From the NCBI GenBank assembly GCA_049975385.1, contig JBNGDO010000005.1, positions 1 through 59,296 on the forward strand: a DNA stretch of 59,296 nucleotides, in the 5' to 3' direction. The notes below the pieces were generated by a model. It was not told the origin of the DNA. It did no database searches and saw only the letters and a list, made by a program, of their open reading frames with translations. Origin of the DNA: Anaerolineae bacterium. GTDB taxonomy: Bacteria; Chloroflexota; Anaerolineae; B4-G1; SLSP01. Below, in pieces: positions 28,463 through 56,064 of this stretch (its first letter is position 1; each line of letters opens with the position of its first letter). The translations under genes were made by a program, and so were the position numbers.

Positions 28463-28981
28463 ATGAAGCGCTTTCGAAAATTCATCTACAACCTGCATCC
28501 GTATGCCCTGAGCTGCATCGCCGGATCGTTGACAATTGCCCAGATCGTTTTGGTCTTTGTCATCCAGCAACCCCGCAACGAGGTGTTGCGCCAGATCGGC
28601 TTGATTCTGTGGTGGGCCGGAGCCGTTTTTGGTTGGGTGCCGATTTTTACGTTCCGCGGGAGGGGCGGCGTGGCCAAAGGGAAAAGCTACGTCCACACTA
28701 CGCGGTTAGTGGATACCGGCATCTACGCCATCGTCCGCCACCCGCAGATGGGCACTGCCTGGCTGCTGATGTGCGCTAGTTTGATACTCGTCACCCAGCA
28801 TTGGATCAGCGTTGCGCTGGGCATCCCGGCAATGGCGCTGACCTACGTGGACCTGCTGAAAGCCGACCAGCGCCTCGTCGAAAAGTTCGGCGACGCGTAC
28901 CGGCAATACATGGAGCGCGTGCCACGGGTGAATTTCGTGGCAGGTATCATCCAATTGGCGCGGCATAGGATGGTAAGATAA
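28463..28981 (+). CDS. ICMT/PEMT-like membrane methyltransferase family protein
   Basis: GIYAIVRHPQMG motif and several TM segments. Confidence 0.65.
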   Translation: MKRFRKFIYNLHPYALSCIAGSLTIAQIVLVFVIQQPRNEVLRQIGLILWWAGAVFGWVPIFTFRGRGGVAKGKSYVHTTRLVDTGIYAIVRHPQMGTAWLLMCASLILVTQHWISVALGIPAMALTYVDLLKADQRLVEKFGDAYRQYMERVPRVNFVAGIIQLARHRMVR

Positions 28982-28983
28982 CG

Positions 28984-29718
28984 ATGCGTGCAAAATCCTT
29001 GCGTTGGTTCGCCTGGTCGCCGACTGGCGACACACTCGTGGCGATGGTCACAGAGCTTGCAATGATCGTGCTTTATTGGACCGCCACCCACCTGCTAGAC
29101 AATGACTGGACCGCCGTACTGGTCTTTGGCTTGCTGACCAACCTGGGCCTCAATGTGCTTTTCCCGGTGTGGTGGATCGTCTACCATCGTAAACAGCCGT
29201 TGAGCGAGTTAGGCATCACCACACGCCACTGGCTTGCCAGCCTGCTCATCAGCGTTGGTCTTGCAGTTTTTAGCTCGTTCGGGCTGCGGCAATACGTGAC
29301 CAGCGTCCATTGGCTGTCCCACGTGCTCTTCAACGCCGTCATCCTGTGGGAACCCTTCTTCGTCTTCAGTTGGCTGCAACTGCGCTATGACCGCGCCTTT
29401 GGCATTTTGCCGGGGGTGTTGCTGACAGGCTTGAGCTTTGCCGCATACCACATCGGCACCTACCCGCCCGCCGGACTGGTCACACTGTTGATCTCGGGAC
29501 TTTTCTTCGCCGCCATCTTCCGCTTGACCTCAAACCTGTTGATCCTGTGGCCGCTGGCCTGGTGTGTGGGATCTTCGATCGGCACCTTGATGGGCGGCAT
29601 GCAGTTCCCCTGGAACCAGGTCGCGGCCTGGTCGGCTATTCTGCTGATCCAGTTGGCCTTCATCGGCTACACCTGGAGGCATCAGATACTAGAAGAGAGA
29701 ACAAAAACTGGAGATTGA
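28984..29718 (+). CDS. polytopic membrane protein, possibly CPBP/Abi-like
   Basis: 7-8 predicted TM segments. WEPFFVFSWLQLR and FAAYH are weakly CPBP-like. Confidence 0.35.
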   Translation: MRAKSLRWFAWSPTGDTLVAMVTELAMIVLYWTATHLLDNDWTAVLVFGLLTNLGLNVLFPVWWIVYHRKQPLSELGITTRHWLASLLISVGLAVFSSFGLRQYVTSVHWLSHVLFNAVILWEPFFVFSWLQLRYDRAFGILPGVLLTGLSFAAYHIGTYPPAGLVTLLISGLFFAAIFRLTSNLLILWPLAWCVGSSIGTLMGGMQFPWNQVAAWSAILLIQLAFIGYTWRHQILEERTKTGD

Positions 29719-42503: not shown

Positions 42504-42791
42504 TTATTGTACCATAGTCACTGCCGCCCGGCGTACGAAAATGGCAGACCACCGATCCGCGAAGTCAATGGCCCACTGTGGGGAGCGTTGCAGCAATCGC
42601 AACAGATCGCGGTCTTCGTGACGGCTCAGAATGACGGTCTGGACATTCTCCGCATCTAGCAGCGCCAACCACTGCGGGTTGAGGTAGCCCTTATCGCGCA
42701 CTGGCAGGCGCCGAAAACAACTCCACGGGATTTGTCGCCAATGCCGCCAGGGATGGCGGTTTGCACGCCATCGAAGGGGAGTGGCGCTCAT
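42504..42791 (-). CDS. hypothetical protein, possibly a C-terminal gene remnant
   Basis: ATGA overlap with the upstream gene. The first 30 aa are Arg/Trp-rich. Only the tail (LNPQWLALLD...WAIDFADRWSAIFVRR) looks protein-like. Confidence 0.25.
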   Translation of the reverse strand: MSATPLRWRANRHPWRHWRQIPWSCFRRLPVRDKGYLNPQWLALLDAENVQTVILSRHEDRDLLRLLQRSPQWAIDFADRWSAIFVRRAAVTMVQ

Positions 42792-43381
42792 CGCGCTGCT
42801 TCCGCGGCGGATTGGCCCACTACCGGCGTGAAAGTGAAACTATGTGTCCCACGTTTAACAAGCCTGAAGTTTCCGCCGCGCGTCACCCTCGCGACCAGAT
42901 CGTCTGGATCCATGTGTGGATCGTTCACCGCAAGGAGCCCGCCCGGACGCAGTATCCGGTGTATTTCCCTCAAGACGCCGTCCTGATCACCGAGCATGTG
43001 GAAGACGTCGAAGAGCAAGGCCACGTCGGTGCTGGCGTCATCCAGTTCTGGTAGATGAAGACCGTCGCTTAGATAGGGGTTGACGTTGTGCAGTCCCTGG
43101 CGTTTGGCTAAGGTTTCCACCCGTTGCATCGCCAGGGGATGGATGTCGACGGCGATCACTGCGCCGTTCTTCCCCACACGCGCCGCAAGCTCCGGGATGT
43201 AGGAACCTGGGCCGCAGCCATAGTCCAGGACCGTATCGCCGGCCTTTAGCGGGATTTCGTCCAGCAGCACGCCGCGCGGCCTGAGCCAATCGCGGATCCT
43301 GAACATCGCAGCCATGCCCTGGAAAAGGATGCCGGGCATGGGCCGGTCAACGCCATAGCTTTCGTTGACTGCCTGCGTCAT
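42788..43381 (-). CDS. class I SAM-dependent methyltransferase
   Basis: VLDYGCGPGSY motif I and the LRPGGLL post-II motif. Confidence 0.8.
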   Translation of the reverse strand: MTQAVNESYGVDRPMPGILFQGMAAMFRIRDWLRPRGVLLDEIPLKAGDTVLDYGCGPGSYIPELAARVGKNGAVIAVDIHPLAMQRVETLAKRQGLHNVNPYLSDGLHLPELDDASTDVALLFDVFHMLGDQDGVLREIHRILRPGGLLAVNDPHMDPDDLVARVTRGGNFRLVKRGTHSFTFTPVVGQSAAEAAR

Positions 43382-43602
43382 GCTGCTTCCTCCGACTTCT
43401 CTGTGGCTGCGTCATCTTGAGGATACCAAGTCCAGGGATGGCGCCCCGTGTGGTGCCTTCGCCATGCCCGTGCAAAGTGGTCGTGGTGCCAGTGGCGCCG
43501 TATCGGACGCTCGCATCCACCAAAGTGGCGAAGCGCTGCACCTCCGATCAACACCCCCAGGACCAACGGTCCAAAGCGAAATCGACGAGATCGTCCTATC
43601 AT
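43378..43602 (-). CDS. 74-aa membrane-anchored His/Arg/Trp-rich protein
   Basis: AAGGAGG lies 9 nt upstream of the ATG. One TM segment (GPLVLGVLIGGAAL), then RRHWHHDHFARAWRRHHTGRHPW. Confidence 0.45.
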   Translation of the reverse strand: MIGRSRRFRFGPLVLGVLIGGAALRHFGGCERPIRRHWHHDHFARAWRRHHTGRHPWTWYPQDDAATEKSEEAA

Positions 43603-43834: not shown

Positions 43835-43874
43835 AAACGGGAGAGGTTGCCCCTCAGAGAGGCCTCTCCCGTTT
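43835..43874 (-). terminator. intrinsic terminator ending the 12-gene operon
   Basis: On the minus strand AAACGGGAGAGG ... CCTCTCCCGTTT is followed by TTTTGT. Located just after the OsmC stop. Confidence 0.65.
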
Positions 43875-43887
43875 GCTAATGTGTGCG

Positions 43888-44313
43888 TTACGCTTTGGGT
43901 GTTACGTCACACTCACCCTTGCCAAGGATGGTGATTTCCAGGTTCTCCATCGTTTTGATGGTAGCGTGTACCGGGCAATGTTCCGCGACGCGTTCGATAG
44001 CTCTCACCCGCTTCGCGCAATCCCCTTTCGGCAGGTTCACCGTGGCCTTGAGATCCACCAGCCGCGTTGGGTCGCTGGCCTTCTCGAAGGTCAGGTCCAC
44101 GGTCATCCCTGTGTCGTCAATGCCGTTGTTCTCACAGTACTGCGCGACAAACGCGCCAATGCAGCTTCCTAACGAGGCCACGAATAATTCCGGAGGAATC
44201 GGACCGCGGTTACTGCCGCCCATCGATGGCGGCACATCAATGGTGAGGGTATGCTTGCCAATTTGTGATTCAAATAACATATCGCCTTTGTAATGAGTGG
44301 TAATGGTTGCCAT
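43888..44313 (-). CDS. OsmC/Ohr-family peroxiredoxin-like protein
   Basis: PPELFVASLGSCIG and AEHCPV Cys motifs. The ATG at 44313 follows AAGGAG. Confidence 0.8.
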   Translation of the reverse strand: MATITTHYKGDMLFESQIGKHTLTIDVPPSMGGSNRGPIPPELFVASLGSCIGAFVAQYCENNGIDDTGMTVDLTFEKASDPTRLVDLKATVNLPKGDCAKRVRAIERVAEHCPVHATIKTMENLEITILGKGECDVTPKA

Positions 44314-44392
44314 AGATCGCTCCTTATTGTGATAATTTACACTGCGCCGAATTATAAAGGTGGTTACGAATTTTGGCCAGTGACATTTATCA

Positions 44393-45280
44393 TTACGTTG
44401 CAGCCGTGTCCATTGGCTTTTCATGAATAGAGCGCGAGCGACTCTGACGCACGATCACACTGCCTACCGGCGCACCCAAATCGCGCCCGATAACCGGACA
44501 TTTGACCTGCAAGAGGCAGAATACGCGCGGACCGGCCTCGCTCAAGGTCTCGTAGTTGGCCTGTCCCTTGGCGATGACCAACGGGGCAGCGGCGTAGATC
44601 TGGCGGAAGTCCTCGGAACACAGGCTCAGAATTGTACCGGGTGCATCGGAACCGTTGTCGATAAGGGTCGCGCACGTTTCTAGCCCCGCGGCCAGTGCGT
44701 CCCCACGCGTTGCGTCATTGAGCGTAGGGCCGCCTTTTACGACATAGGTCACCGGTAGTGTAAGTGTCTCGATCAACACACGATCGAAGACCGTCTCCCC
44801 GGCGTTGTCGGCCAGATAGAGCACGCGATCGGCGGCGTCCAGCGCCGACCGCAAGGCTGCCAGATCGTCGATGGCGAAGGGCGCAGCCAACACCCGCTCC
44901 ACCGCTGTCCAGAGATCGGCCAGTTCATCGGATAGGGCAAAGTCGATGATATTACCTGCGATGCTCAACCGTACGGCCGTTTCCAACGGATCGGTACTCT
45001 CGGCGACAAGGCCCTTGAGGCGAGGATAAAGCGCCAGGGCCGCGCGGGTGCTGTGCGCTTTAAGGTCGCGGTAAGGGTCACTATGCCCCATATGCTCACG
45101 CACGATGCGATGCACAGCATAGGCGATTTCCGGCGGCGTTTTGCCAGGCGGCAATGCCTGCAACAAAGCCAGGGTTTGTCCCATAATGGCATGCTGCTGA
45201 GCATCTTCCGCGCCTACTTGCCGTGCCGCTCTCAAGGCCTGGCTCAGGAAACAGGGATAACAATCGAGGTAAGTGCGCAT
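44393..45280 (-). CDS. DUF89 (ARMT1-like damage-control phosphatase) family protein
   Basis: MRTYLDCYPCFLSQAL N-terminus and a LADNAGETVFD motif. Confidence 0.7.
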   Translation of the reverse strand: MRTYLDCYPCFLSQALRAARQVGAEDAQQHAIMGQTLALLQALPPGKTPPEIAYAVHRIVREHMGHSDPYRDLKAHSTRAALALYPRLKGLVAESTDPLETAVRLSIAGNIIDFALSDELADLWTAVERVLAAPFAIDDLAALRSALDAADRVLYLADNAGETVFDRVLIETLTLPVTYVVKGGPTLNDATRGDALAAGLETCATLIDNGSDAPGTILSLCSEDFRQIYAAAPLVIAKGQANYETLSEAGPRVFCLLQVKCPVIGRDLGAPVGSVIVRQSRSRSIHEKPMDTAAT

Positions 45281-46344
45281 CAGACGTTCTCTGGTACCTG
45301 TGGGGCGTACGCGGTCGCGCCGGTACTCTGATAGAGCACGCCCGTATCGGTCAACGTTGTCTGCAAGGCGGAAGCGACCAGCCCGCGCAGGTCTTCCACC
45401 GCCATCTGCACCCGCGCGTTAATCAGAACGGTCACGGGTGCGCACAGACGTTCAGGGAGATCGTTCTCCCATATCGTATCCTCATCCAACGTTGTGAAAC
45501 TGAGCTTGACGCCCCCTTGTGCGTCTCGGACAAAGAATTTGAGGTGAGCAACGGGATAAGCAACCTGGCGTAAACCGGCGAGGATCGTCGCGATCAAGCG
45601 GACGACCGTGGCGCGCTCCATGCCGGGCAAAGGCGTGAACGTTACCTCCTCATCCAGCCAGGCCAGTTCGGCAGCCCCGGCGATGTAGGGGCCGTAATCC
45701 AATGCCAACGCGGGCGGCAGAGACGGCGCGGCGTGTAAAAGTGCCAGCCACGGCGCGACCCCCTCTGGCGTTAGCGAACTTTGCAACAGCAGTGTCTTGT
45801 CGGGGAAGCGGCTGCACGCCTGTTCCAGAATGGCATCGCCTTCTTCTGGCAGCAGATCGGCTTTGTTGATCACCAGGATGTTGGTCTCTGCGAGTTGTTG
45901 CGCGAAAATGTAGCTGATGTTGTCGCTGAAAGGTAGCGGCAATCCCGCAAGGTAGCGGCGCAGCAGGCGAATATCTGCAAAGACGGAATAGGTGACGCGC
46001 GCGCCATCCTGCTCTCCCAACGCGCGCAGCGGGAGCAGCACCGGCCCAACCAGGTCCACGCACGAGCCAACCGACTCGGCAAACAATACCTCGGGGCGCG
46101 CCTGCTGCTGAAGTTGTGCGATCCGTTTCAGGAAGTCGCTGTAGTTGCAGCGGAAGCAGCCGCCCGGCACTTCGGCGGTGGGCACGTCAGCCGTCCCCAT
46201 AAAGGCGGTATCCACCTGGTAGTGGCCTTTATCATTGGTGATCACGCCCACGCGCTGACCTTCCGCCAGTAATGTCTTGAGCGCGTTAATGATCGCCGTG
46301 GTCTTGCCACTGCCGAGAAATCCACCGACGACGTGTAAGTCCAT
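45280..46344 (-). CDS. G3E-family (CobW/HypB/UreG-class) P-loop GTPase
   Basis: GGFLGSGKTT P-loop, GGCFRC metal-type motif, INKADL (NKxD). The start at 46344 was chosen because the longer ORF overlaps the upstream gene. Confidence 0.75.
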   Translation of the reverse strand: MDLHVVGGFLGSGKTTAIINALKTLLAEGQRVGVITNDKGHYQVDTAFMGTADVPTAEVPGGCFRCNYSDFLKRIAQLQQQARPEVLFAESVGSCVDLVGPVLLPLRALGEQDGARVTYSVFADIRLLRRYLAGLPLPFSDNISYIFAQQLAETNILVINKADLLPEEGDAILEQACSRFPDKTLLLQSSLTPEGVAPWLALLHAAPSLPPALALDYGPYIAGAAELAWLDEEVTFTPLPGMERATVVRLIATILAGLRQVAYPVAHLKFFVRDAQGGVKLSFTTLDEDTIWENDLPERLCAPVTVLINARVQMAVEDLRGLVASALQTTLTDTGVLYQSTGATAYAPQVPENV

Positions 46345-46346
46345 GG

Positions 46347-47228
46347 TTATACTTTTCCCAATCCCTGCTTCTGCAACATAGCCCATGCTGCCCGCAAGGC
46401 CTCCGCTGCAGGAGAGTTGCCCGCCGTAACCGGCTCGCCGCGCACCATTGCATCGGTGATCGTGGGATCGTAAAGCAAGCGTCCCACCAATGGGATGTCG
46501 TTTGCGGTGCAATAGGTGGTGACGGCCTCTGCCTGCACAGGGCTGAGATCGGCTTTGTTGAGTAACACCGCTGCTGGGATTTGAAAGTGTGTTGCCAGCC
46601 CCAGAGCGCGCTCCAGGTCGTGCACGCCGGAAACTGTCGGCTCGGTGACGATGAGCGCTAGATCCGCCCCGGAAAGCGCGGCGATGACAGGACAGCCGAT
46701 ACCCGGTGGCCCATCCACCAACAGCAGGTCGGCCTCGTCGTCGAAAGCGCGCAGCCGCGCCATCTGCTTGACCAGCGTGACGAGCTTGCCGGAATTCTCT
46801 TGCCCGGCGAAGAGATGCGCGTGGTAGAGCGGGCCGTAGCGTGTCGTAGCGACAAACCACTGCCCGGCGCGTTGCGGTTGCATCGCAATGGCATTAGCAG
46901 GGCACTCGTAGAAACACGCGGCGCAGCCTTCACAGGCGATAGGGTCTACGGCATAAGTGTCGCCTGGCACTACCGCATCGAAGCGACAGACCTCGGCACA
47001 GCGCCCGCAGGCGATACAGCGCGCGGCATCGACGACGGCGATCCTGCCGCCGGTAAAATCGTTCGTTTCTTGCGTGACGGGCGACAGCACCAGGCCCAGA
47101 TTGGCCGCATCCACGTCCGCGTCAGCGAGCACGATACGGTAATCCTGCGCTGCCAAATGCGTCAGCGCTGCCGTCACTGTCGTTTTACCCGTCCCACCCT
47201 TGCCACTTAGAATAACCAGTTGTTTCAT
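46347..47228 (-). CDS. MinD/Mrp-superfamily ATPase with inserted 2x[4Fe-4S] ferredoxin domain (COG1149 type), copy 2
   Basis: SGKGGTGKTT deviant Walker A. CIACGRCAEVC and CEGCAACFYECP motifs. Confidence 0.85.
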   Translation of the reverse strand: MKQLVILSGKGGTGKTTVTAALTHLAAQDYRIVLADADVDAANLGLVLSPVTQETNDFTGGRIAVVDAARCIACGRCAEVCRFDAVVPGDTYAVDPIACEGCAACFYECPANAIAMQPQRAGQWFVATTRYGPLYHAHLFAGQENSGKLVTLVKQMARLRAFDDEADLLLVDGPPGIGCPVIAALSGADLALIVTEPTVSGVHDLERALGLATHFQIPAAVLLNKADLSPVQAEAVTTYCTANDIPLVGRLLYDPTITDAMVRGEPVTAGNSPAAEALRAAWAMLQKQGLGKV

Positions 47229-47259
47229 CAGTACACGTCCAAGTTTTTTAAAAGATATG

Positions 47260-47949
47260 CTAGTAAATGTAAGGTAGCAGGCGCCAGGAGCGCTGGCAAT
47301 ACGTTTCCCACGCTACCCCGAAGGTCTGATGAAGAAGCGCTTCTTCATCGTGAATACGAAAGAGAACTATACCGAGTACCGGGATGAAGGCCACCAGTCC
47401 CACCCACGAGCGAAACAGCAGCGCCAGGCCCGGCGTCGCCAGCAGCACGCCCAGGTAGCGCGGATGCCGCAGAACGCCATACAGCCCGGTGGTAATCAGG
47501 CGATGATCTTTTTGCAGCGTCACGTCGGGACTGTAAAAACGGCCAAGAGCAATGCCAGACCAGAGCACCAGACCGAGGCCCAGTCCGACACCCAGCAGCC
47601 CCACCCAGCGCAAGACTTCTCCGCCGGACCACACGGCCAGATCGCGCCGGTCGGCAAAGGGTAGGAAAAACAAGCCGCCGTACATCGCCAGAATGACCAC
47701 GACTTTGACAATGGTCTGCCGCGTCACGCGCTGCCCGCTCTCGTCTTTCCCGCCATGGATTTGCCCTGATGAGATGATCGCGTGATAGACGACGCCCAAT
47801 CCAAGCAGCAGGGTCAATCCCGCGTAACCCGCGCGCGGCGCGCTGGCGAAGAAGCCCAGCAAATCGCCCAGTCCCCACCCCAACAACACGGGAACCAAGT
47901 AAATGATCAATGTGCCGAATAGAAAGCGCAAAGCACGTAAGTATTTCAT
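47260..47949 (-). CDS. ICMT/PEMT-like membrane methyltransferase family protein
   Basis: GLYGVLRHPRYLG motif and 5-6 TM segments. Confidence 0.65.
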   Translation of the reverse strand: MKYLRALRFLFGTLIIYLVPVLLGWGLGDLLGFFASAPRAGYAGLTLLLGLGVVYHAIISSGQIHGGKDESGQRVTRQTIVKVVVILAMYGGLFFLPFADRRDLAVWSGGEVLRWVGLLGVGLGLGLVLWSGIALGRFYSPDVTLQKDHRLITTGLYGVLRHPRYLGVLLATPGLALLFRSWVGLVAFIPVLGIVLFRIHDEEALLHQTFGVAWETYCQRSWRLLPYIY

Positions 47950-48443
47950 TTTTCGTCAAATCTCCGGTCCGCTTGATGGGTATGGACGTTCGCCTGTACG
48001 CGCTCTAACCAGCCCACATGGTCGGCTGCGTCACCATCAAACGCCGGGACGTAGGGCTTGAGATCGAGAATGGGCGTGCCGTCCACCATATCCACGTTTT
48101 CCAGGTGCAATATGTTCCCCTCGCATTCCAGCAGCCGCACCACCGAGAGGCCGATGGGATTGGGGCGCGCCGGAGCGCGGGTGGCGAAGACGCCACGGGG
48201 TTCGGTATCCATAAACGGCGTGACTAACAGTCGCGGCGCAGGCGCATGGTGGAAGTGGTAGAGTACGATCACGTGAGAAAAGCCTTCCAGGTCTTGCAGA
48301 CCGGGCGCGAATTCTGGGTCAATCTCGGCTGTGCCGCGCACGCCGTCCGCACCCGCCGGCTGGATAGGCATCCCGGCGACGTCGTTGAACGGCGTGTGCA
48401 AGATGCCGATGGGTCGGTATTGGATGAGGCGCGCGTTGGGCAT
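47946..48443 (-). CDS. TsaA/TrmO-family (UPF0066) SAM-dependent methyltransferase-fold protein
   Basis: GFSHVIVLYHFHH, RPNPIGLSVV and DGTPILDLKPYVP motifs. Confidence 0.8.
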   Translation of the reverse strand: MPNARLIQYRPIGILHTPFNDVAGMPIQPAGADGVRGTAEIDPEFAPGLQDLEGFSHVIVLYHFHHAPAPRLLVTPFMDTEPRGVFATRAPARPNPIGLSVVRLLECEGNILHLENVDMVDGTPILDLKPYVPAFDGDAADHVGWLERVQANVHTHQADRRFDEK

Positions 48444-48451
48444 TGACCGGA

Positions 48452-49429
48452 CTACTCCTCAGCCGCGATCACAAAGACTTGCCCCAGGCCGCTCGATAGG
48501 TAATCCGCGCCAAACGCCTCCGCGAAGGCGCGGCGCGCAGGATCTCCGGTGCAGTGGCTTGGGGCGATGCGTTGCACGCCGAGTTCCTGCAGTTCGGCAA
48601 TCGTGCCAGCGATCTGCGCGGCGCTGGCGCCGCCCAGATGGAAACCGCCGAGTGCCAGATACACGTTCTCATCTAGCTCAGTCTTCGCCTGGCGCACCAG
48701 CGTGGCGATGCCGGGGTGCGCACAGCCTGTGATAACGACTAGGCCACACGGTGTTTCCAACGCCAATGCCTGCTCGCGGATTGGATTGCCGAGTTCGCCG
48801 GTGGTATGCGCCCCTGCGGCGACCTGTTGTGGTTCTGTCACTTCCACCAGCGTCGCGCCGGCCCGGCGGACGGTATTCTTGATACCCGCCGGGAATGAGT
48901 TAGGCACGTACACGGTGACGTCCGGGTTTTCCGCAAGGAAGGCTGCCAGTCCGCCGGTGTGATCGCCGTGGGCGTGCGAGAGCACGACGGTGCGCACCGC
49001 CTGCGGGTCGAGACCAAGCGTGCGCATGTTTTGCAAGAGGATATCGCCCTTGCCGCCGGTATCGAAGAGCAGCGGGTGTTCCATGCCCTCCACCAGGCAG
49101 GCAAAGCCCCAATCGGTTTGTAAGCGTGGGTCGTGGGCCACATTGTCATAGACTACAGTAATCGTAAGCATTGTTCCGGTTTTCATAGGTTGCGTTCCAG
49201 GTGTTGCTGTGAAGGTTGCGCTTGGTGTCGCCGTGGGGGGTATGGCTGTTGCGGATGGCATCAATGTGGGCGTTGCTGTAGACGTGGGTACGCGCGTCAA
49301 GGTTGCCGTGGGAAGTACCGTGGGCGACGCTGTGGGCACGGTCGTTGGTGTGGACGTGGCGGGCATCGTGCGCGGCGCACAACTCACCAATCCCACAACT
49401 AAGCCAACAAGCAAAAGCCGCGCCCACAT
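48452..49429 (-). CDS. exported MBL-fold hydrolase lipoprotein
   Basis: Lipobox LVSC, an approximately 60-aa Thr/Pro/Ala linker, then LSHAHGDHTGG. The start at 49429 was chosen because the longer ORF overlaps the upstream gene. Confidence 0.7.
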   Translation of the reverse strand: MWARLLLVGLVVGLVSCAPRTMPATSTPTTVPTASPTVLPTATLTRVPTSTATPTLMPSATAIPPTATPSATFTATPGTQPMKTGTMLTITVVYDNVAHDPRLQTDWGFACLVEGMEHPLLFDTGGKGDILLQNMRTLGLDPQAVRTVVLSHAHGDHTGGLAAFLAENPDVTVYVPNSFPAGIKNTVRRAGATLVEVTEPQQVAAGAHTTGELGNPIREQALALETPCGLVVITGCAHPGIATLVRQAKTELDENVYLALGGFHLGGASAAQIAGTIAELQELGVQRIAPSHCTGDPARRAFAEAFGADYLSSGLGQVFVIAAEE

Positions 49430-49431
49430 TC

Positions 49432-50316
49432 CTAATCCCCAGTCCCTAATCCCTTCACTTGCTCCCACAGCGCCACGAAACGCTCGCGATATTCGGGGCG
49501 AATGGCGATAAGCGATTCGCCGTTGGCGATACCCTCTGCGATGGCGCGTTCCAGCGGGATGCGCAGCAGTATGGGCAGGTTCTCGGTGGCGCAGTAAGCG
49601 TCCACACCATCGTCGCCCACCCCGTCGCGGTTGACGACGACGGCGACGGGTAAGCCAAGTTCGTCGCGGGCCACTTCCACCGCCACCTGCAGATCGTGCA
49701 GACCGAAGGGCGTCGGTTCGGTGACGAGTAGTACGGCGTCGGCCCCGCGCATAGTTTCGACGACGGGACACGATGCACCGGGTGGCGCGTCGAGGATGAT
49801 GGGCCGCTCATTCGCCTCTGGTGGAATCGCCCACCCTTTGAGCTGGCGTATCACCGGCACGGCCATCGCTTCGCCCACATCCAACGTTCCATTGAAGAAC
49901 TCTACCTCACTCGTGCCCGCCTTGGCGACACCTTTTTCCAATATCCCCATCAGATTTAGCGTTTCGTGGATCGCATTCTCTGGGCATTGGCGCGTGCAAC
50001 TCCCACAGCCGTGACACAGTTCGGGGAAGACGAGGACCTGTTTCCCGATGACGGTGATCGCGTGGTACTCACACACCTCGGCGCAGCGCCCGCAGGCGGT
50101 GCAGCGCGCTATATCCACCACGGGGATCAACAGCCCCACATCGCGCTGCGCAGTTATCTCAGGGTGCAGAAACAGCGCGGCGTTGGGTTCTTCGACGTCA
50201 CAATCCAGAAAAAGGGGGGAAGAAGCGGGATGTGCGGTGGCAAGGCTAAGCGCCAGGCTCACCGCTACCGTTGTTTTGCCGGTTCCGCCCTTGCCGCTGG
50301 CAATGGCAAGTTTCAT
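49432..50316 (-). CDS. MinD/Mrp-superfamily ATPase with inserted 2x[4Fe-4S] ferredoxin domain (COG1149 type), copy 1
   Basis: SGKGGTGKTT. CTACGRCAEVC and CHGCGSCTRQCP motifs. Confidence 0.85.
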   Translation of the reverse strand: MKLAIASGKGGTGKTTVAVSLALSLATAHPASSPLFLDCDVEEPNAALFLHPEITAQRDVGLLIPVVDIARCTACGRCAEVCEYHAITVIGKQVLVFPELCHGCGSCTRQCPENAIHETLNLMGILEKGVAKAGTSEVEFFNGTLDVGEAMAVPVIRQLKGWAIPPEANERPIILDAPPGASCPVVETMRGADAVLLVTEPTPFGLHDLQVAVEVARDELGLPVAVVVNRDGVGDDGVDAYCATENLPILLRIPLERAIAEGIANGESLIAIRPEYRERFVALWEQVKGLGTGD

Positions 50317-50322
50317 CGAAAG

Positions 50323-50520
50323 CTATTCCCGGATCATCTGCGTGCCACATTTTGGGCACTGTTTTGCGGTGCAGGGCTGTCCGGGAACGTGCGGCTCACG
50401 ATGCCCACACGCCGGGCAAACACACTGGCCCCCCGGCCCAGCGGCTGTCCCTCCCATCCGCCCTGGGCCTTGTCCCTGTCCTCGTCCGCCACCGCCTCCT
50501 CGTCTGGTTCCACGTCCCAT
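50323..50520 (-). CDS. 65-aa Gly/Arg-rich protein with CxxC...CxxC zinc-ribbon
   Basis: The ATG at 50520 follows AGGAGGT. Sequence MGRGTRRGGGGGRGQGQGPGRMGG...CVCPACGH...CPKCGTQM. Confidence 0.55.
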   Translation of the reverse strand: MGRGTRRGGGGGRGQGQGPGRMGGTAAGPGGQCVCPACGHREPHVPGQPCTAKQCPKCGTQMIRE

Positions 50521-50538
50521 TTCGCTACCTCCTGAAAA

Positions 50539-50568
50539 TAGTCTGATAGTCATTAGTCCGATAGTCCT
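50539..50568 (-). repeat. TAGTC tandem array (7/8-nt alternation) in the 5' leader of the zinc-ribbon gene
   Basis: Plus strand TAGTCTGA TAGTCAT TAGTCCGA TAGTCCT. It ends 5 nt from the SD complement. Confidence 0.6.
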
Positions 50569-50628
50569 GCGATCATTTTTATGATCAAGACTGCGCCTCA
50601 GGTTTGGTGACACTTCTTTGAAAGCGAC

Positions 50629-51081
50629 TCAAAGTCGCACTACGACCGCCCGCGCCAGCGATGCCGTGCTTGCCGCCCGGCTATCGCCGAGATGACGGAC
50701 CCCACAACTTTGCTCCCCCGTGGGCGCAGCATATAGATGTCCAAGCGTGTTTAGCACAAGCGGTGCCGCCTGGATGGCCAATTGTGCACCGGCCGCAATC
50801 ACCGTCGCCAGCGGATTCGTGTCCGGAGAGGATGATACAGGAGTGGCCACATCTGTGGGGGCGTATTCCGGGACTTGCGTCTCTGTGGGAACAGCTTCGA
50901 TCTCCAACACCGGCTGTAACGCTCCGGCCGGGCAGGCCTGGATACAGGCTTCGCACCCTTCGCATAGCGCATCGTCCAGATGGGCTGTGCCTTCCACCAG
51001 GGTCAGCGCGCGGGTTGGGCAAACTTCGATGCATGCGCCACATCCGGTACAACGGGTCACGTCAAGCCATACTGCCGTCAT
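50629..51081 (-). CDS. 2x[4Fe-4S] ferredoxin with about 90-aa low-complexity C-terminal extension
   Basis: CTGCGACIEVCP and CEGCEACIQACP motifs. The ATG at 51081 has an AGGAA 6 nt upstream (the ORF-track start at 51105 is TTG). Confidence 0.75.
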   Translation of the reverse strand: MTAVWLDVTRCTGCGACIEVCPTRALTLVEGTAHLDDALCEGCEACIQACPAGALQPVLEIEAVPTETQVPEYAPTDVATPVSSSPDTNPLATVIAAGAQLAIQAAPLVLNTLGHLYAAPTGEQSCGVRHLGDSRAASTASLARAVVVRL

Positions 51082-51121
51082 TGCAGTTTCCTTTCGTTGA
51101 CTCAATTACAAAATCTAAAAT

Positions 51122-51496
51122 CTATTCGTGGCCGTGTTCGACGCTCTCCTTGCAGGGGGCCGCGCCCTTCAGGTCACCGCCCAGATAGCGGGACAATGAT
51201 GCGCGCACGGTTCCCGCCGCGCCGGTCGCCGCTTCGATGCCATATTGCCGGAAGAGGGCGACGGCTCGGCCACCCATTCCGCCGGAGAGCATCACCTGTG
51301 CACCCAGACTGTGGATGAAGGCGGGGACCTGTCCGGGTTCGTGCCGGGAGTAGTATGGATTGGCGATCGTCTCTACAGTGCATACTTCTTGCCCCTCGGT
51401 TTCGACCAGGGTGAAGTACGGGCAGCGCCCGAAATGGGGGCTAACCTGGGCATCCAGGCCATTGGTATCCAACACAGAAATTGCAATTTTCGTCAT
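51122..51496 (-). CDS. NifX/NafY-like (dinitrogenase FeMo-cofactor-binding domain family) protein
   Basis: KIAISVLDTNGLDAQVSPHFGRCPYFTLVE is typical of the family. Cys/His tail APCKESVEHGHE. The ATG at 51496 lies 6 nt after AGGAG. Confidence 0.8.
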   Translation of the reverse strand: MTKIAISVLDTNGLDAQVSPHFGRCPYFTLVETEGQEVCTVETIANPYYSRHEPGQVPAFIHSLGAQVMLSGGMGGRAVALFRQYGIEAATGAAGTVRASLSRYLGGDLKGAAPCKESVEHGHE

Positions 51497-51506
51497 CAAA
51501 GTCTCC

Positions 51507-51566
51507 TAGTCATTAGTCAGATAGTCGTTAGTCATATAGTCCTTAGTCGGATAGTCCTTAATCGGA
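51507..51566 (-). repeat. four tandem 15-nt units (paired TAGTC heptamer/octamer) in the NifX-like gene leader
   Basis: Plus strand TAGTCATTAGTCAGA TAGTCGTTAGTCATA TAGTCCTTAGTCGGA TAGTCCTTAATCGGA. The last unit abuts the SD. Confidence 0.65.
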
Positions 51567-51610
51567 CTGTCGAATAGTCGCAGGCACTCGGCCTTGCGGT
51601 AAATCCGAAC

Positions 51611-52420
51611 TCACCTACGTCCGCGGCGATGACGCCCGCCACCCATGCCCACGTGGCCAGCGCCAGGGGTTTCCAGGCGCGCCAACTGCCCGGCGTTGAA
51701 GGCCGCGATGGCCTCGCGCACGGTCGCGCCTTCCATGCGGTAGGCCGGGATGCCCGCCGCCTGGATGACGCGGAAGGCATTCGGTCCCAGGTTGGGGGCG
51801 ATCACGGCCCCCACGCCCTTCTGCAAGACAGTCTGGGCTGCCTGGACGCCCGCGCCACCGGGTGCGTCGATTGCCGGATTGGGCAGGGCCTCGAAGTCCA
51901 GCGTTTCGGGATCGACCAAAATGAACACTGGGCTGCGCCCAAAGATGGGGCTGGTCGGCGCATCCAAATCGGTGCCATTAGCAGGAATAACAAGTCGCAT
52001 CGTCATCTCCTCAGTTGTGAATGAATAGTCCGCCGCCGGAACGACACTGTCCGGCGCGAGTTCATCGTGCAGTGCTCGCAAGTATTCGAGCACCTGTTGC
52101 GTATCCTGGAGTTGTGCAATGCAACAGGCCAGCACTGCGTGTCCGGCAGGAGCCAGGGCATAGACGCGGCGCGGCGGACCTTGGGTCTCCTTTTCATCCC
52201 ACGTGGACGTGATCCACCCCCGCTCTTCCATCCCACGCAGCGCGCGATAGATCACGGTGGGGGCCAGGAAGTCCAGGCCGAACTCGGCCATACGGTTCAA
52301 AAGGGTGTAGCCATGGGCTGGAGATTGTTCCAGCAAGAGCAACAATGCCGGATCGAGAAACTGTCCCATCCGGCGGTTGCAGTCGCGTCCATTGCATTGC
52401 TGTCCCCCGCGATATCGCAC
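51611..52420 (-). CDS. PadR-family winged-helix regulator fused in frame to a NifX/NafY-like domain
   Basis: FLDPALLLLLEQSPAHGYTL...PRRVYALAPAG (PadR), then MRLVIPANGTDLDAPTSPIFGRSPVFILVD (NifX-like). No stop lies between them. The GTG at 52420 lies 6 nt after GGAGG. Confidence 0.75.
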   Translation of the reverse strand: MRYRGGQQCNGRDCNRRMGQFLDPALLLLLEQSPAHGYTLLNRMAEFGLDFLAPTVIYRALRGMEERGWITSTWDEKETQGPPRRVYALAPAGHAVLACCIAQLQDTQQVLEYLRALHDELAPDSVVPAADYSFTTEEMTMRLVIPANGTDLDAPTSPIFGRSPVFILVDPETLDFEALPNPAIDAPGGAGVQAAQTVLQKGVGAVIAPNLGPNAFRVIQAAGIPAYRMEGATVREAIAAFNAGQLARLETPGAGHVGMGGGRHRRGRR

Positions 52421-52437
52421 CGTGCACCTCCAAGTTT

Positions 52438-52468
52438 AGTATAGCATCTATTGCCAATCTGTCAATAG
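52438..52468 (-). promoter_or_regulatory. promoter of the PadR::NifX operon with overlapping 21-bp palindrome
   Basis: Minus strand CTATTGACAGATTGGCAATAG (52468-52448). The -35 TTGACA lies within it. A 16-nt spacer precedes the -10 TATACT (52443-52438). Confidence 0.55.
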
Positions 52469-53274: not shown

Positions 53275-53333
53275 ATATCCAAAGTAAGTATGACGCACAG
53301 TACGATGAGTTGCGTGTTAAGAATGTGACTATT

Positions 53334-54047
53334 ATGGCACAGAAAATTCTCGTGGTGGAAGATGACCAAGTTTTGCGCGAGACATTGGCCTACAATTTGA
53401 ACAAAGAGGGCTATACGGTTTTGACTGCGGAAGACGGCAGCGTTGCTGTCGAAACCACCCGGCGTGAAAAACCGAATTTGATCGTGCTAGACCTTATGCT
53501 TCCGGGCATAGATGGCTTTGAGGTTTGCCGTATCGTGCGCCGGGAGAGCAATGTCCCCATCTTGATGTTGACGGCCCGCACGGATGAAGTGGATCGTGTG
53601 GTGGGATTGGAAGTCGGCGCAGACGATTATGTCACCAAACCATTCAGCATGCGCGAACTGCTGGCGCGTATCAAAGCGCATTTGCGGAGAGAGCGAATGA
53701 TCCGCGAAACGTTAACGCCGCCGGTAACGCACACGACCGATTTGAAGCCGCCCTTGTCTTTTGGTAATCTTTCTATCGATCTAAATCGGTGCGAGGTGAT
53801 GCTGGACGGCGATATACTGCCGCTCAAGCCCAAGGAATACGAGTTATTGGCTTCGTTAGCCCTGCACAAAGGCCAGGTGCTTTCCCGTCCCCAACTGATG
53901 CAAAGCGTGTGGGGGTGGGATCACAGCGTGAATAGCCGTACGATCGATGTTCACATTCGTTGGCTGCGACGCAAGATAGAGCCTGACCCGGATAACCCCA
54001 CCCGCATTGTCACTGTGCGCGGCATCGGTTACCGCTTTGAAGGATAA
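53334..54047 (+). CDS. OmpR/PhoB-family response regulator (PhoB/PhoP-like by context)
   Basis: MAQKILVVEDDQ, DLMLPGIDG, and the C-terminal VTVRGIGYRF. No adjacent histidine kinase. Confidence 0.85.
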   Translation: MAQKILVVEDDQVLRETLAYNLNKEGYTVLTAEDGSVAVETTRREKPNLIVLDLMLPGIDGFEVCRIVRRESNVPILMLTARTDEVDRVVGLEVGADDYVTKPFSMRELLARIKAHLRRERMIRETLTPPVTHTTDLKPPLSFGNLSIDLNRCEVMLDGDILPLKPKEYELLASLALHKGQVLSRPQLMQSVWGWDHSVNSRTIDVHIRWLRRKIEPDPDNPTRIVTVRGIGYRFEG

Positions 54048-54095
54048 AGAGGCCACAAGAAAATGATGAGTTTGTAAACAAACCTTTCCCTGATC

Positions 54096-54149
54096 TTAAC
54101 AAACCGTTAACATTCTGTTGAAACCCCCTTAATCTTCGCGTGTTATGAT
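54096..54149 (+). promoter_or_regulatory. Pho box (four hexamers at 11-bp phasing) plus extended -10 upstream of pstS
   Basis: TTAACA (54096), TTAACA (54107), TTGAAA (54118) and TTAATC (54129). TGtTATGAT at 54141-54149. Confidence 0.6.
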
Positions 54150-54188
54150 GACCTTGCGATCAAAAAACAAAACTCAGGAGGAGATAAT

Positions 54189-55064
54189 ATGCGTCGCGTA
54201 AGTTTAGTTGTGTTTATTTTAGTGGCAATGTTGGTCACGGCTTGTGGCGGTAGTACACCGACTACAGCGCCGACAGCGGTTCCGGAAACTACCGAAGCCA
54301 CTGAGCCGGCTCCCGTTGCCGAAAGTGGTCAGCACATCAGTGTAGCGGGTTCGACGACGGTGCAGCCGTTGGCGGAGAAGCTGGCGGAAGAGTTCGCGGC
54401 CGCGAATCCCGATGTGAAGATCGACGTCGCGGGCGGCGGTTCGAGCGCGGGCGTCAAGGCCGCGGGCGATGGCACCGCCGACATCGGCGCAGCCTCGCGT
54501 GAAATCAAGGACGAGGAGAAAACGACCTACCCCGACATCGTGATCTTCGAGATTGCGCGGGACGGCATCGCGGTCGTCGTACACCCCGAAGTGCCCATCG
54601 ACACGCTGACCAAGGATCAGGTACGCGACATCTTCGCGGGTGTCATCACCAACTGGAGCGAGGTGGGCGGCGAGAACCAGCCAATCACCGTTATCTCCCG
54701 TGAGGAAGGCTCCGGCACACGCGGTGCGTTCGAGGAGATGGTGATGGGTGACGATGCAGCGATCACCGATCAGGCGATCTTCCAGGACTCCAACGGCAAG
54801 GTGCGCACCACCGTCGCCAGCACCCCCAACTCGATCGCCTACCTGTCCTTTGGTTACCTGGATGACTCCGTGTACGCCGTGGCGATCGACAGTGTGGAAG
54901 CCACCGAGGCCAATGCTCTGAGCGGCGCTTACCCTGTCGTCCGCCCGCTGAACATGGTCACCTTGGGCGAACCGACCGGTGTGGTCAAGACCTGGTTGGA
55001 CTGGATCATCAGCGATGCCGGGCAAGAGATTGTAACAGAGCAAGGATACCTTGCTGTTAAATAA
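54189..55064 (+). CDS. pstS: phosphate ABC transporter substrate-binding lipoprotein
   Basis: Lipobox LVTAC. Also AGSTTVQPLAE, GGGSSAGV and REEGSGTR motifs of the PstS (PBP_like_2) family. Confidence 0.9.
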   Translation: MRRVSLVVFILVAMLVTACGGSTPTTAPTAVPETTEATEPAPVAESGQHISVAGSTTVQPLAEKLAEEFAAANPDVKIDVAGGGSSAGVKAAGDGTADIGAASREIKDEEKTTYPDIVIFEIARDGIAVVVHPEVPIDTLTKDQVRDIFAGVITNWSEVGGENQPITVISREEGSGTRGAFEEMVMGDDAAITDQAIFQDSNGKVRTTVASTPNSIAYLSFGYLDDSVYAVAIDSVEATEANALSGAYPVVRPLNMVTLGEPTGVVKTWLDWIISDAGQEIVTEQGYLAVK

Positions 55065-55083
55065 AGGATAAAAGGTTATAAGA

Positions 55084-55132
55084 TCGAGAATCAAGAATCG
55101 AAAGGATTCTTGATTCTCGATTCTCGATTCTT
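55084..55132 (+). repeat. pstS-pstC intercistronic heptamer-array hairpin
   Basis: TCGAGAA TCAAGAA TCGAAAG, then GATTCTT GATTCTC GATTCTC GATTCTT. Perfect 15-bp stem 55085-55099 / 55105-55119 with loop GAAAG. Confidence 0.7.
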
Positions 55133-55147
55133 GAGTAACGAGGCATC

Positions 55148-56059
55148 ATGAAACTAACGCGGACCGTCGATCGAACCATTCGTTATCTGCTGTTGGGCAG
55201 CGCATTATTATCTGTCTTTATTGTGTTATTGATTGGCATATTTACCTTGATCGAAGCCTGGCCGGCGTTCCGTGAAGTCGGGTTGGTGGATTTCCTTTTC
55301 AATCCGGTATGGCACCCGCTGCCCGACGATCCCCCCAATAGTGAATTTGGTATCCTGGGGATGATTTATGCGTCGATCATCGTAACGGCAGGCGCGATCA
55401 TCTTGGGCGTGCCGTTAGGGATCGGGTGTGCCGTGTTTTTGGCCGAAATCGCTCCAGAGGCAATCCACAAACTGGTGCGTCCGGCTGTGGAACTGCTCGC
55501 CGGCATTCCCTCTGTCGTCTACGGCCTCGTGGGTATGGTCTGGTTGGTCCCCCTCATCCGCGAACTTATCCCGGTTGCCAATAATCAGGGCTTTGGTTTT
55601 CTGGCTTCGTCTATCGTGTTGGCGGTCATGATCTTGCCGACCATCATCAATATTGCCGAAGATGCGATTCGCGCGGTTCCGGAGTCTTACCGGGAGGGCG
55701 CGCTGGCTCTGGGCAGCACCCACTGGCAAACGATTGTCAATGTCATTTTCCCGGCGGCGCGTTCCGGCATCGTCGCTGCGGTGATCTTAGGGATTGGGCG
55801 CGCGTTAGGGGAAACAATGGCGATGGTGATGGTCATCGGCAACTCTACGGAGTTCCCGGTTCCGTTGACCGCCAATCCGTTGACGATCTTCCTGGCGCGC
55901 GGCCGCACGTTGACCGGCAATGTCGTGATGGGCTTGAATTATGCGGCCGGGGTCCACCGCAGCGCGCTGTTTGCCACGGGTGTGGTGTTATTTTTGATGA
56001 TTATGCTGGTCAACGGCATGGCGCGGGTGATTGTGAAGAAGTGGTCTGATAAGGGGTAA
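55148..56059 (+). CDS. pstC: phosphate ABC transporter permease
   Basis: Six-TM permease with the EAA-type loop AEDAIRAVPESYREGALALGSTHWQT. Confidence 0.85.
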   Translation: MKLTRTVDRTIRYLLLGSALLSVFIVLLIGIFTLIEAWPAFREVGLVDFLFNPVWHPLPDDPPNSEFGILGMIYASIIVTAGAIILGVPLGIGCAVFLAEIAPEAIHKLVRPAVELLAGIPSVVYGLVGMVWLVPLIRELIPVANNQGFGFLASSIVLAVMILPTIINIAEDAIRAVPESYREGALALGSTHWQTIVNVIFPAARSGIVAAVILGIGRALGETMAMVMVIGNSTEFPVPLTANPLTIFLARGRTLTGNVVMGLNYAAGVHRSALFATGVVLFLMIMLVNGMARVIVKKWSDKG

Positions 56060-56064
56060 CAAGC

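Follow-up and report, generated by a model that had tools for sequence, protein, structure and literature searches.

The 59,296-nt stretch of an Anaerolineae bacterium analysed here (contig JBNGDO010000005.1, assembly GCA_049975385.1; hereafter the window) carries twelve co-directional open reading frames (ORFs) on its minus strand, g1 to g12, running from 52420 down to 43888. They are preceded by a sigma-70-type promoter (52438-52465, minus strand; TTGACA-16-TATACT, matching at 11 of 12 positions, with a TG extension) and followed by an intrinsic terminator (43835-43874, minus strand), a long GC stem then UUUUU, which is more stable than each of 200 shuffles (z = -3.3). According to the coordinates, intergenic distances range from -4 to 111 nt, with an ATGA overlap between g7 and g8 and a TGATG overlap between g10 and g11. 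On all these points the results bear out an earlier note on this DNA, which had described such an operon from the letters. Pfam and NCBIfam scans agree with the families it had named for g1, g2, g3 and g5 to g12, and profile hidden Markov models together with fold comparisons place the key products in the NifX/NafY-type (IPR003731), MinD/Mrp and G3E families, as it had proposed; its DUF5320-type label does not hold for the 65-residue g4. Its single transcript has the flanking promoter and terminator on its side, but a promoter-like site (TGGCCA-17-TATAAT; 44351-44379, minus strand) lies in the 79-nt gap between g11 and g12, ahead of the OsmC gene, and is conserved in L005 (L-numbers denote related loci compared with the window), so that one 12-gene transcript is not assured.

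The core of the operon includes two ATPases, g5 (49432-50316, minus strand) and g9 (46347-47228, minus strand), hereafter A and B. Both belong to the MinD/Mrp class of deviant Walker A ATPases (CbiA/ParA P-loop plus Fer4) and carry a 2x[4Fe-4S] insert of the kind found in Orp3 and Orp4. Invariant in the A/B alignment are the Walker A sequence SGKGGTGKT, the eight cysteines of the ferredoxin motifs and the cysteine of PPGxxC. A HMMER search of 1.84 billion representatives returned 737 clusters (50% identity) of this family at E<=1e-30. Among the 33 members of at least 560 residues, 32 are A-B tandem fusions, with the N-terminal half most similar to g5 and the C-terminal half to g9, and they therefore provide Rosetta-stone evidence for an A/B heterodimer. 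The AlphaFold2 model of g5 (predicted local distance difference test score, pLDDT, 96.7) finds its nearest solved folds in archaeal MinD, FleN/FlhG, ApbC, ATPase-type HypB, Cfd1, NifH and BchL, with query-normalised TM-scores of only ~0.5-0.6, as the ferredoxin insert is missing from every solved structure. These comparisons show g5 and g9 to be a conserved pair of putative partner ATPases, the predicted counterparts of Orp3 and Orp4.

The core contains two further modules, both with the IPR003731 domain. g2 (51122-51496, minus strand; start ATG 51496) stands alone, is of the TM1290/PH0822 type and ends in a Cys/His tail (Nitro_FeMo-Co in Pfam). Against solved structures it groups with PH0822 and TM1290 (E ~1e-22), its best NCBIfam match is the C-terminal domain of MrpORP, and in the orp loci of Desulfobacterota its homologues (31-39% identity) come after the B ATPase; by synteny, g2 is the probable equivalent of Orp5. 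The second module is the C-terminal half of g1 (51611-52420, minus strand; 269 residues, start GTG 52420 with GGAGG 6 nt upstream), in which a PadR winged-helix regulator (Pfam E 5.5e-15) is fused to a cysteine-free IPR003731 domain of the ORP/IssA type (Nitro_FeMo-Co, 4.5e-18). The N-terminal winged helix-turn-helix matches PF03551 with 55.6 bits against a cut-off of 27, and the C-terminal domain matches MTH1175 (2e-24), TM1816 and the Desulfovibrio gigas orange protein (ORP; 2WFB, 1.8e-17) among solved structures. In the window, the ORP-type domain of the core is present solely as this fusion. A search with D. gigas ORP yielded 30 loci, mostly from Desulfobacterota, of which 28 have the order ORP, A (41-52% identity to g5) and B (43-51% to g9), usually followed by a g2-type gene. 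By homology and gene order, the core of the locus is an orp-type gene set in which the g1 C-terminal domain, g2, g5 and g9 are the predicted counterparts of Orp8, Orp5, Orp3 and Orp4.

In D. vulgaris, Orp3 and Orp4 are the ferredoxin-motif ATPases of the ORP complex, Orp8 is homologous to ORP, and Orp5 is similar to a small [2Fe-2S] protein (PMC6345978). Orp3, Orp4 and Orp8 co-purify, MrpORP (Orp9) transfers iron-sulfur (Fe-S) clusters to them, and MrpORP itself binds a 3Fe-4S cluster through its IPR003731 domain (PMC6345978). Redox sensing by OrpR, the regulator of orp, relies on an Fe-S cluster, and the orp-type neighbourhood is specific to anaerobes, with a physiological role that is still unclear (PMC8359166). 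The core is known already, having been studied experimentally in Desulfovibrio (Orp3/4/5/8/9, MrpORP and OrpR), and the locus is a variant of it. Of the previous view that this neighbourhood is uncharacterised and without an assigned function, only the part concerning its physiological role survives. The locus shares with the Desulfovibrio complex the A-then-B ferredoxin-insert ATPases, an ORP-type IPR003731 module, a second small IPR003731 protein and a gene set confined to anaerobes. It differs in that the ORP module is fused to PadR instead of standing alone, in its control, which involves a sigma-70-type promoter and a PadR operator instead of sigma-54, OrpR and IHF, and in gene content: no Mrp-like/Orp9 ORF was found in the window, although 43% of orp-like loci elsewhere have one, and a metallo-beta-lactamase (MBL) lipoprotein, a TsaA-like protein, ICMT, G3E, DUF89 and OsmC are added. 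OrpR (a sigma-54 activator with Fe-S redox sensing through a PAS domain) and g1 are alike as dedicated orp-type regulators that probably read a metal-sulfur cofactor, but are unrelated in protein family, sensor domain and promoter type.

By its best matches, the C-terminal domain of g1 falls into the IssA/MTH1175 clade of iron-sulfur storage proteins. The IPR003731 domain of Pyrococcus furiosus IssA binds iron and sulfur, its cationic Gly-rich tail has been proposed to hold anionic thioferrate, and MTH1175 has been assigned to the clade of IssA (PMC5524996). In Methanococcus voltae, proteins of this clade become more abundant during growth on pyrite (PMC9431491). Like IssA, the g1 domain has no cysteine in its sequence and carries a cationic Gly/Arg/His tail, and Gly/Arg tails occur in other regulon members; cysteine is missing from ORP too, and both ORP and IssA bind their clusters non-covalently. 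The tail of g1 (PGAGHVGMGGGRHRRGRR) is short, however, with ~20 Gly-rich residues that are not aromatic, as opposed to the ~70 Gly- and aromatic-rich residues of IssA, and it lacks aromatic-rich repeats. The g1 domain is moreover attached to a transcription factor, whereas IssA is a storage protein for thioferrate. NifX, NafY and the C-terminal domain of NifB, the carriers of nitrogenase cofactors, have PF02579 and the fold family in common with these proteins, but no nif genes are present here and the best matches belong to the non-nif clades MTH1175, TM1816, ORP, PH0822 and TM1290; in a published phylogeny, IssA-type proteins stand apart from the NifX, NafY and NifB clades (PMC5524996).

Fusions of PadR to Nitro_FeMo-Co form more than 100 clusters at 90% identity, with identities as low as 40%, and every organism name given in the source is Anaerolineae or Anaerolineales. 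An N-terminal Arg/Gly extension with a CX4C motif is conserved in relatives of g1. No paper describing a PadR-NifX-type fusion was found in a literature search. Separate PadR and ORP-type genes are adjacent in L004, L040 and L048, and divergent in L051, L065, L077 and L113. A distant fusion (40% identity) in L122 (7328-10710) is followed by a NifX-like gene, a 66-residue ORF and an MgtE divalent-cation transporter, with no ATPase pair nearby. The IPR003731 domain also occurs fused to a CDF transporter, to DUF5320 and to Mrp. In L001 (7379-8629) and L004 (10867-12366), a Cation_efflux (CDF) transporter with a C-terminal Nitro_FeMo-Co domain lies between the G3E and DUF89 genes, which suggests that this domain also gates metal export.

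Upstream of g1, a palindromic sequence, CTATTG-N9-CAATAG (52448-52468), overlaps the -35 box and the spacer of the promoter and is the presumed g1 site; because of this overlap, g1 presumably represses transcription and does not activate it. L005, L004 and L040 retain both the sequence CTATTGACAGATTGGCAATAGATGCTATACT and the promoter architecture, while the flanks diverge. With up to two mismatches allowed, the operator pattern occurs six times in the window (1.09 expected). A degenerate operator is located at 44410-44430, near the promoter-like site of the g11-g12 gap. In 1.83 Mb comprising the window and the related loci there are 7 exact sites and 16 with at most one mismatch, against ~4 expected at uniform base composition, and 15 of these 16 adjoin PadR or cluster genes in Anaerolineae loci. 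Operator copies are conserved ahead of PadR and PadR-fusion genes and also between PadR and orp genes that diverge from each other. The previous proposal that the operon carries its own sensor-regulator is strengthened by this conserved operator.

A second operator copy (CTATTGACAATTTGTTAATAG; 25610-25630) with a -10 box TAAAAT lies 18 kb from the operon, directly upstream of two plus-strand DUF5320 genes (25675-25908 and 26039-26347; Pfam E 3.6e-7 and 4.6e-26). These are followed on the same strand by genes for VKOR/thioredoxin-like (26647-27804), PNPOx-like (27841-28218) and ICMT-like (28463-28981) proteins and by a weak Rce1-like match (28984-29718), and the unit adjoins a nitroreductase. 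The DUF5320 pair also stands behind the operator in L002, L005 and twice in L004, and in L002, L004 and L005 the orthologues of VKOR and PNPOx lie next to the main cluster. L002 has a perfect operator between the DUF5320 pair and OsmC, with the identical sequence again at the end of L004; an operator with one mismatch separates PadR from OsmC in L051. In L006, a two-mismatch operator-like site with TATACT precedes the series PadR-DUF5320-DUF5320-ferredoxin-g4-G3E. Because the operator precedes this distant unit, the system reaches beyond the coordinates first assigned to it and includes DUF5320 proteins, which are thus part of the system as previously supposed, though not in the person of g4. 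The operator in this way ties the DUF5320 proteins, the unnamed zinc-ribbon family of g4, the G3E GTPase, OsmC and VKOR to the system. As a separate observation, the ICMT-like methyltransferase gene of the second unit lies directly beside the weak match to Rce1, a CAAX protease family (28463-29718, plus strand), a pairing reminiscent of CAAX processing; ICMT paralogues occur in L004 (6712 and 7336) and L002 (4387 and 5005).

Another group of products consists of small Gly/Arg-rich proteins. g4 (50323-50520, minus strand) encodes 65 residues, Gly/Arg-rich at the N-terminus, and contains a zinc ribbon of 6 Cys and 2 His; its family has no Pfam model, and all 212 matches are unnamed, with the consensus (GR)n-GQGQGPGRMGG-AAGPGG-CVCPxCGH..PH..GQPC....CPKCG. 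As a candidate DUF5320 protein (PF17253) it was rejected, with no Pfam match even at E<1. g3 (50629-51105, minus strand; probable start ATG 51081) encodes a 2x[4Fe-4S] ferredoxin (Pfam) with a linker, a hydrophobic helix and a tail. Relative to its orthologues it contains a 1-nt frameshift near 50700 (about 50690-50710, minus strand), because of which the conserved cationic tail, ...LRPRGSKVV..AIAGRQARHRWRGRS, is out of frame in the window and can be read in the +1 frame only; either the sequence is in error here or the tail has really been lost. Cationic Gly/Arg segments are found at the N- and C-termini of g1 (GGGRHRRGRR), at the C-termini of g3 orthologues (GGRQxRHRRRGRW), at the N-terminus of g4 and in the DUF5320 proteins. 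DUF5320::Nitro_FeMo-Co fusions exist, and the literature search found no paper on DUF5320 in an orp context. By analogy with IssA, we infer that these tails may bind anionic metal-sulfide.

The closest relatives of the locus are metagenome-assembled genomes of Anaerolineae (Chloroflexota). L009 (90% G3E identity) has the same gene order without OsmC, and L005 (80%) lacks TsaA and ICMT. In L004 (74%) and L002 (73%), the ferredoxin, g4 and G3E genes stand together, apart from the ATPase block; L004 adds ICMT paralogues, an S-adenosylmethionine (SAM) methyltransferase and a second PadR. The CDF::Nitro_FeMo-Co gene is inserted between G3E and DUF89 in L001 and L004, in L001 together with an ICMT-like gene. 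In L006 the ferredoxin-g4-G3E group is kept together under a PadR operator though the ATPases are absent. Since relatives reorder, drop and insert genes in this way, the 12-gene operon is one arrangement of a flexible gene set.

On a broader scale, an alignment of A plus B proteins retrieved 80 loci from Chloroflexota, Desulfobacterota, Planctomycetota, Acidobacteriota, Omnitrophota, Bathyarchaeia, methanogens and others; an orp-type neighbourhood was also found in Nitrospirota. The 77 loci with an A gene form the base of the percentages, with families scored by phmmer (E<1e-3) on six-frame ORFs; as many contigs are short, these values are lower bounds. B was present in 97%, the ORP-type domain in 90%, the g2 type in 75%, an Mrp-like P-loop in 43% and the g4 family in 35%, with g4 directly upstream of A in 28 of the 77 loci. 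The g1 C-terminal domain and g2 represent the two IPR003731 subtypes found with the A/B pair almost everywhere. The other families were found less often: MBL 26%, DUF89 17%, g3-like ferredoxin 16%, TsaA-like 13%, PadR 8%, ICMT 6%, OsmC 3% and G3E 0%. The DUF89, MBL and TsaA-like genes often lie between core genes, for example in L081, L089 and L105. The core therefore recurs in anaerobic bacteria and archaea, as the earlier note expected, but the set of twelve is not fixed even among relatives. Likewise, its description of the locus as an expanded copy fits G3E, ICMT and OsmC, which are lineage-specific, and does not fit MBL, DUF89 and TsaA-like genes, which are found next to the core in distant phyla as well. 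Further neighbours came from de novo clustering, checked against Pfam: DUF5320 (39 loci), Zn_ribbon_8 (33), IscU-like NifU_N (24), radical SAM (19), DUF134 (17), FeS_assembly_P (12), DUF364/DUF4213 (11), CGGC (10) and DUF1847 (5). Inspection of sequences alone pointed to SAM methyltransferases (12), sigma-54 activators resembling enhancer-binding proteins (EBP-like; 12) and Fur-like proteins (7), and Mrp-NifX fusions were among the cross-phylum neighbours. MBL, TsaA, ICMT, G3E, DUF89 and OsmC were found in none of the 30 loci retrieved with D. gigas ORP.

Among the accessory products, g6 (48452-49429, minus strand) is a metallo-beta-lactamase-fold protein (Lactamase_B; 7DCK, 2.9e-54; TM1679) whose signal peptide is that of a lipoprotein (lipobox LVSC) and which has a Thr/Pro linker. 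The lipobox leader and linker are conserved in Anaerolineae orthologues and absent from the MBL proteins of archaeal and Omnitrophota clusters; a literature search on 7DCK returned nothing relevant. g7 (47946-48443, minus strand) encodes a single-domain TsaA/TrmO_N protein of 165 residues. Its score for TIGR00104 (130.6 bits, cut-off 93.25) would make it a tRNA methyltransferase by that equivalog model; its best PDB match is the single-domain AF_0241, full-length TrmO having a C-terminal domain too, and the g7 type also recurs in orp-like clusters. g8 (47260-47949, minus strand) is a membrane methyltransferase of the ICMT/PEMT family, g11 (44393-45280, minus strand) a DUF89/ARMT1-like metal-dependent phosphatase (both Pfam/NCBIfam) and g12 (43888-44313, minus strand) an OsmC-family protein (Pfam). 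DUF89 proteins are metal-dependent phosphatases (PMC9062747); the literature search found no link between DUF89 and an orp cluster.

g10 (45280-46344, minus strand) encodes a G3E GTPase (cobW, PF02492, 86 bits) of a COG0523-like Anaerolineae subfamily, with full-length matches across the Anaerolineae at 44-90% identity. It falls below every NCBIfam cut-off (best, CobW_rel_Se, 56 against 180 bits). The model (pLDDT 92.1) resembles YjiA best, then HypB, UreG and MMAA/MeaB. With the COG0523 proteins YjiA, ZigA and CobW it shares the Walker A, ESxG and NKxD motifs and a YjiA-like two-domain architecture, and the consensus of its family has their GCxCC motif. Unlike them it has no CobW_C match in Pfam, an additional invariant cysteine in ESVGSC (conserved along with Walker A and NKAD) and, in the clade of the window, a CFRC metal motif that has lost the middle cysteine of the family consensus GGCFCCN (CFCC). 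G3E was rejected as a general partner of the orp core, being absent from all 77 broad loci and all 30 ORP loci; distant members sit in other contexts, so that its tie to the core is local. In L007 (8623-11763) and L120 (7001-9930), such members lie beside B12-binding (corrinoid) proteins, in L007 with a URO-D/MtaA-like gene, which hints at a corrinoid- or cobalt-related role of the subfamily outside the cluster.

Taken together, these data suggest that the locus is the Anaerolineae form of the orp-type gene set, rewired under a PadR repressor with an ORP/IssA-type effector domain, and that it would sense an anionic metal-sulfide species, probably Fe-S, and handle it in an ATP-dependent manner, a reading in which we place middling confidence. 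The main reason to favour Fe-S is the Fe-S biogenesis flavour of the neighbouring families. In the mechanism that we envisage, a g1 dimer would bind CTATTG-N9-CAATAG and repress the regulon, while its cysteine-free IPR003731 domain and cationic Gly/Arg tail would bind an anionic inorganic metal-sulfide non-covalently, most likely Fe-S of a thioferrate-like form. Ligand loading would alter DNA binding, and the regulon would then track the supply or integrity of the metal-sulfide species. g2 and the Gly/Arg-tailed small proteins (g4, the g3 tail and the DUF5320 proteins) may hold such material, and the A/B heterodimer may use ATP to mobilise, reduce or hand clusters to client proteins, with electrons passing via the four [4Fe-4S] clusters of A/B and the g3 ferredoxin. 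MBL, DUF89 and TsaA-like proteins would be recurrent accessories, and G3E, ICMT-like and OsmC proteins lineage-specific additions.

Several points weigh against this interpretation. Its functional part is built on homology, synteny and motifs, and the ORP complex on which it is modelled has no settled physiological role, with one in cell division having been proposed (PMC8359166). The ligand need not be Fe-S, because D. gigas ORP binds a Mo-Cu-S cluster, and the Gly/Arg tails could bind nucleic acids instead. The difference in tail length between g1 and IssA and the lack of an Mrp/Orp9 homologue in the window count on the same side. In addition, an exported MBL lipoprotein fits poorly with a purely cytoplasmic pathway, and distant members of the g10 family are found beside URO-D and B12-binding proteins, beside DUF362 or alone.

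The Mo-Cu-S cluster raises the question whether the system instead handles a Mo/W thiometallate or a heterometal cluster and serves Mo/W enzymes. The similarity of the g1 C-terminal domain to 2WFB and the [S2MoS2CuS2MoS2] cluster of ORP homologues (PMC6345978) are in line with this, as is the presence in the window of a Mo/W-bis(pyranopterin guanine dinucleotide) formate dehydrogenase with Fe-S domains (FDH; 7094-9811), which the earlier note had named as a candidate client, and of a MobA-like gene (10992-11690) with a one-mismatch operator-like site (10875-10895) ahead of it. This site is not conserved in six relatives, however, where what is conserved is an extended -10 box, and neither FDH nor Mo-transport or molybdenum cofactor (Moco) genes adjoin the cluster in relatives. 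The characterised recurrent neighbours of the 77 loci include no such family, those identified being Fe-S biogenesis families; an Rfam scan of the whole window brought no family to threshold and hence no Moco or other riboswitch; and for the g1 domain MTH1175, a member of the IssA clade, is a closer match than ORP. We therefore consider a Mo/W function improbable, and nothing supports a link between FDH and the operon. The conserved extended -10 promoter itself (GTGGTACAAT; 10860-10900) lies upstream of the MobA-like gene and is shared by L123, L125, L126 and L127.

Other alternatives concern the unity of the operon and the nature of its ATPases. The operon might be a lineage-specific assemblage in which only the orp-like core (g1, g2, g4, g5 and g9) cooperates, while the MBL lipoprotein, TsaA-like, ICMT, G3E, DUF89 and OsmC proteins perform separate envelope, redox-stress or housekeeping tasks and are merely co-regulated in a PadR regulon for sulfide, redox or oxidant stress. 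Gene content and order do vary among close relatives, G3E is missing from the 77 loci and has homologues in other contexts, OsmC has its own promoter-like site, the MBL protein is exported, TIGR00104 names g7 a tRNA methyltransferase, and the regulon includes VKOR/thioredoxin-like and PNPOx-like genes beside a nitroreductase. Yet unrelated phyla have the MBL, DUF89 and TsaA-like genes within their orp-like clusters, in many cases flanked by core genes, and far more frequently than expected by chance at one or two copies per genome, and the ferredoxin-g4-G3E group stays intact under the PadR operator of L006, where the ATPases are absent; we judge this account rather unlikely. A different suggestion is that A and B are positioning or cell-division proteins of the MinD/ParA type, a role first put forward for the Desulfovibrio ORP complex, and that the PadR::ORP fusion responds to capture by that complex of ATPases (partner switching) instead of to a small inorganic ligand. 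In its favour, g5 comes closest to MinD and FleN/FlhG among solved folds, inactivation of OrpR is reported to cause morphological defects and MrpORP is found at the cell pole (PMC8359166, PMC6345978), Orp8 is purified together with Orp3 and Orp4 (PMC6345978), and a PadR-family protein that binds a nitrogenase-like enzyme, MarS, is known (PMC13474568). We give this suggestion very little credence: the family is defined by its eight invariant ferredoxin cysteines and the PPGxxC cysteine, the neighbours belong to Fe-S biogenesis families instead of division genes, and no MinE- or MinC-like partner is present.

Returning to the reading of the locus as a PadR-controlled orp-type system for metal-sulfide, a bolder and decidedly tentative extension is that PadR::ORP/IssA-domain proteins constitute a new class of transcription factors that directly sense a non-covalent inorganic metal-sulfide (thioferrate-like Fe-S or thiometallate). 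Their regulon, made up of Gly/Arg-tailed proteins, the A/B ferredoxin-ATPase and enzymes of the envelope, would serve to store and mobilise polyanionic Fe-S material and perhaps to import or export it. If this were true, anaerobes would possess an Fe-S economy parallel to SUF/ISC, and the fusion would reveal the physiological ligand and role of the ORP complex; a ligand of the Fe-S or thioferrate kind would bear on how iron and sulfide are stored and distributed in anaerobes. Having an ORP-type domain as the effector of a simple repressor with a 21-bp operator makes candidate ligands testable, a handle that the Desulfovibrio model does not offer, and the fusions (A-B, PadR-IPR003731, CDF-IPR003731 and DUF5320-IPR003731) suggest interaction partners that can be tested. 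New with respect to the known core are a repressor that contains the ORP domain, together with its operator and regulon, the evidence from A-B fusions and the cross-phylum recurrence of MBL, DUF89 and TsaA-like genes.

Further features were observed within and around the operon. Tracts of GACTAN hexamers, on the sense strand with a spacing of 7-8 nt and a 15-nt unit (GACTATCNGACTAAN), lie immediately 5' of ribosome-binding sites, often with TTTTC-AGGAGG next. One tract of 3.6 copies (51502-51560, minus strand) is located just 5' of the g2 ribosome-binding site, and another, followed by TTTTC-AGGAGG, just 5' of g4 (50534-50567, minus strand). The pattern has seven matches in the window (0.49 expected), five of them in the two long gaps of the operon, where predicted RNA structure is no more stable than that of shuffles (z = -0.2 and -0.5). 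Similar tracts are found in L001 (890), L004 (2176 and 6657), L005 (6240), L009 (79 and 1286), L123 (8473) and L126 (7804, 7890 and 12505), and they also precede unrelated genes in related Anaerolineae contigs; they may represent a clade-specific leader or translation element. Right after the g3 stop codon, a short hairpin (GCGACTTTGAGTCGC; 50612-50628, minus strand) is conserved in L009, L002, L004 and L001, with a T-run following it in L001, and may act as a weak attenuator or stabiliser between g3 and g4.

Finally, two genes beyond the terminator were considered as operon members and rejected. Both lie behind a promoter-like site of their own. The product of the SAM methyltransferase gene at 42788-43381 shows only a generic 26% identity to the methyltransferase inside the L004 cluster. 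The 74-residue ORF at 43378-43602 (minus strand), which overlaps this downstream gene by ATGA, encodes a hydrophobic N-terminal segment and then a His/Arg/Trp-rich stretch (RRHWHHDHFARAWRRHHTGRHPWTWYP), with no Pfam match and no homologue among the fetched loci. On the other side, divergent from the operon, the plus strand (53310-57843) carries genes for a PhoB-type response regulator and a Pst-type phosphate transporter; one ORF (56065-57843) combines PBP_like_2 and permease domains.

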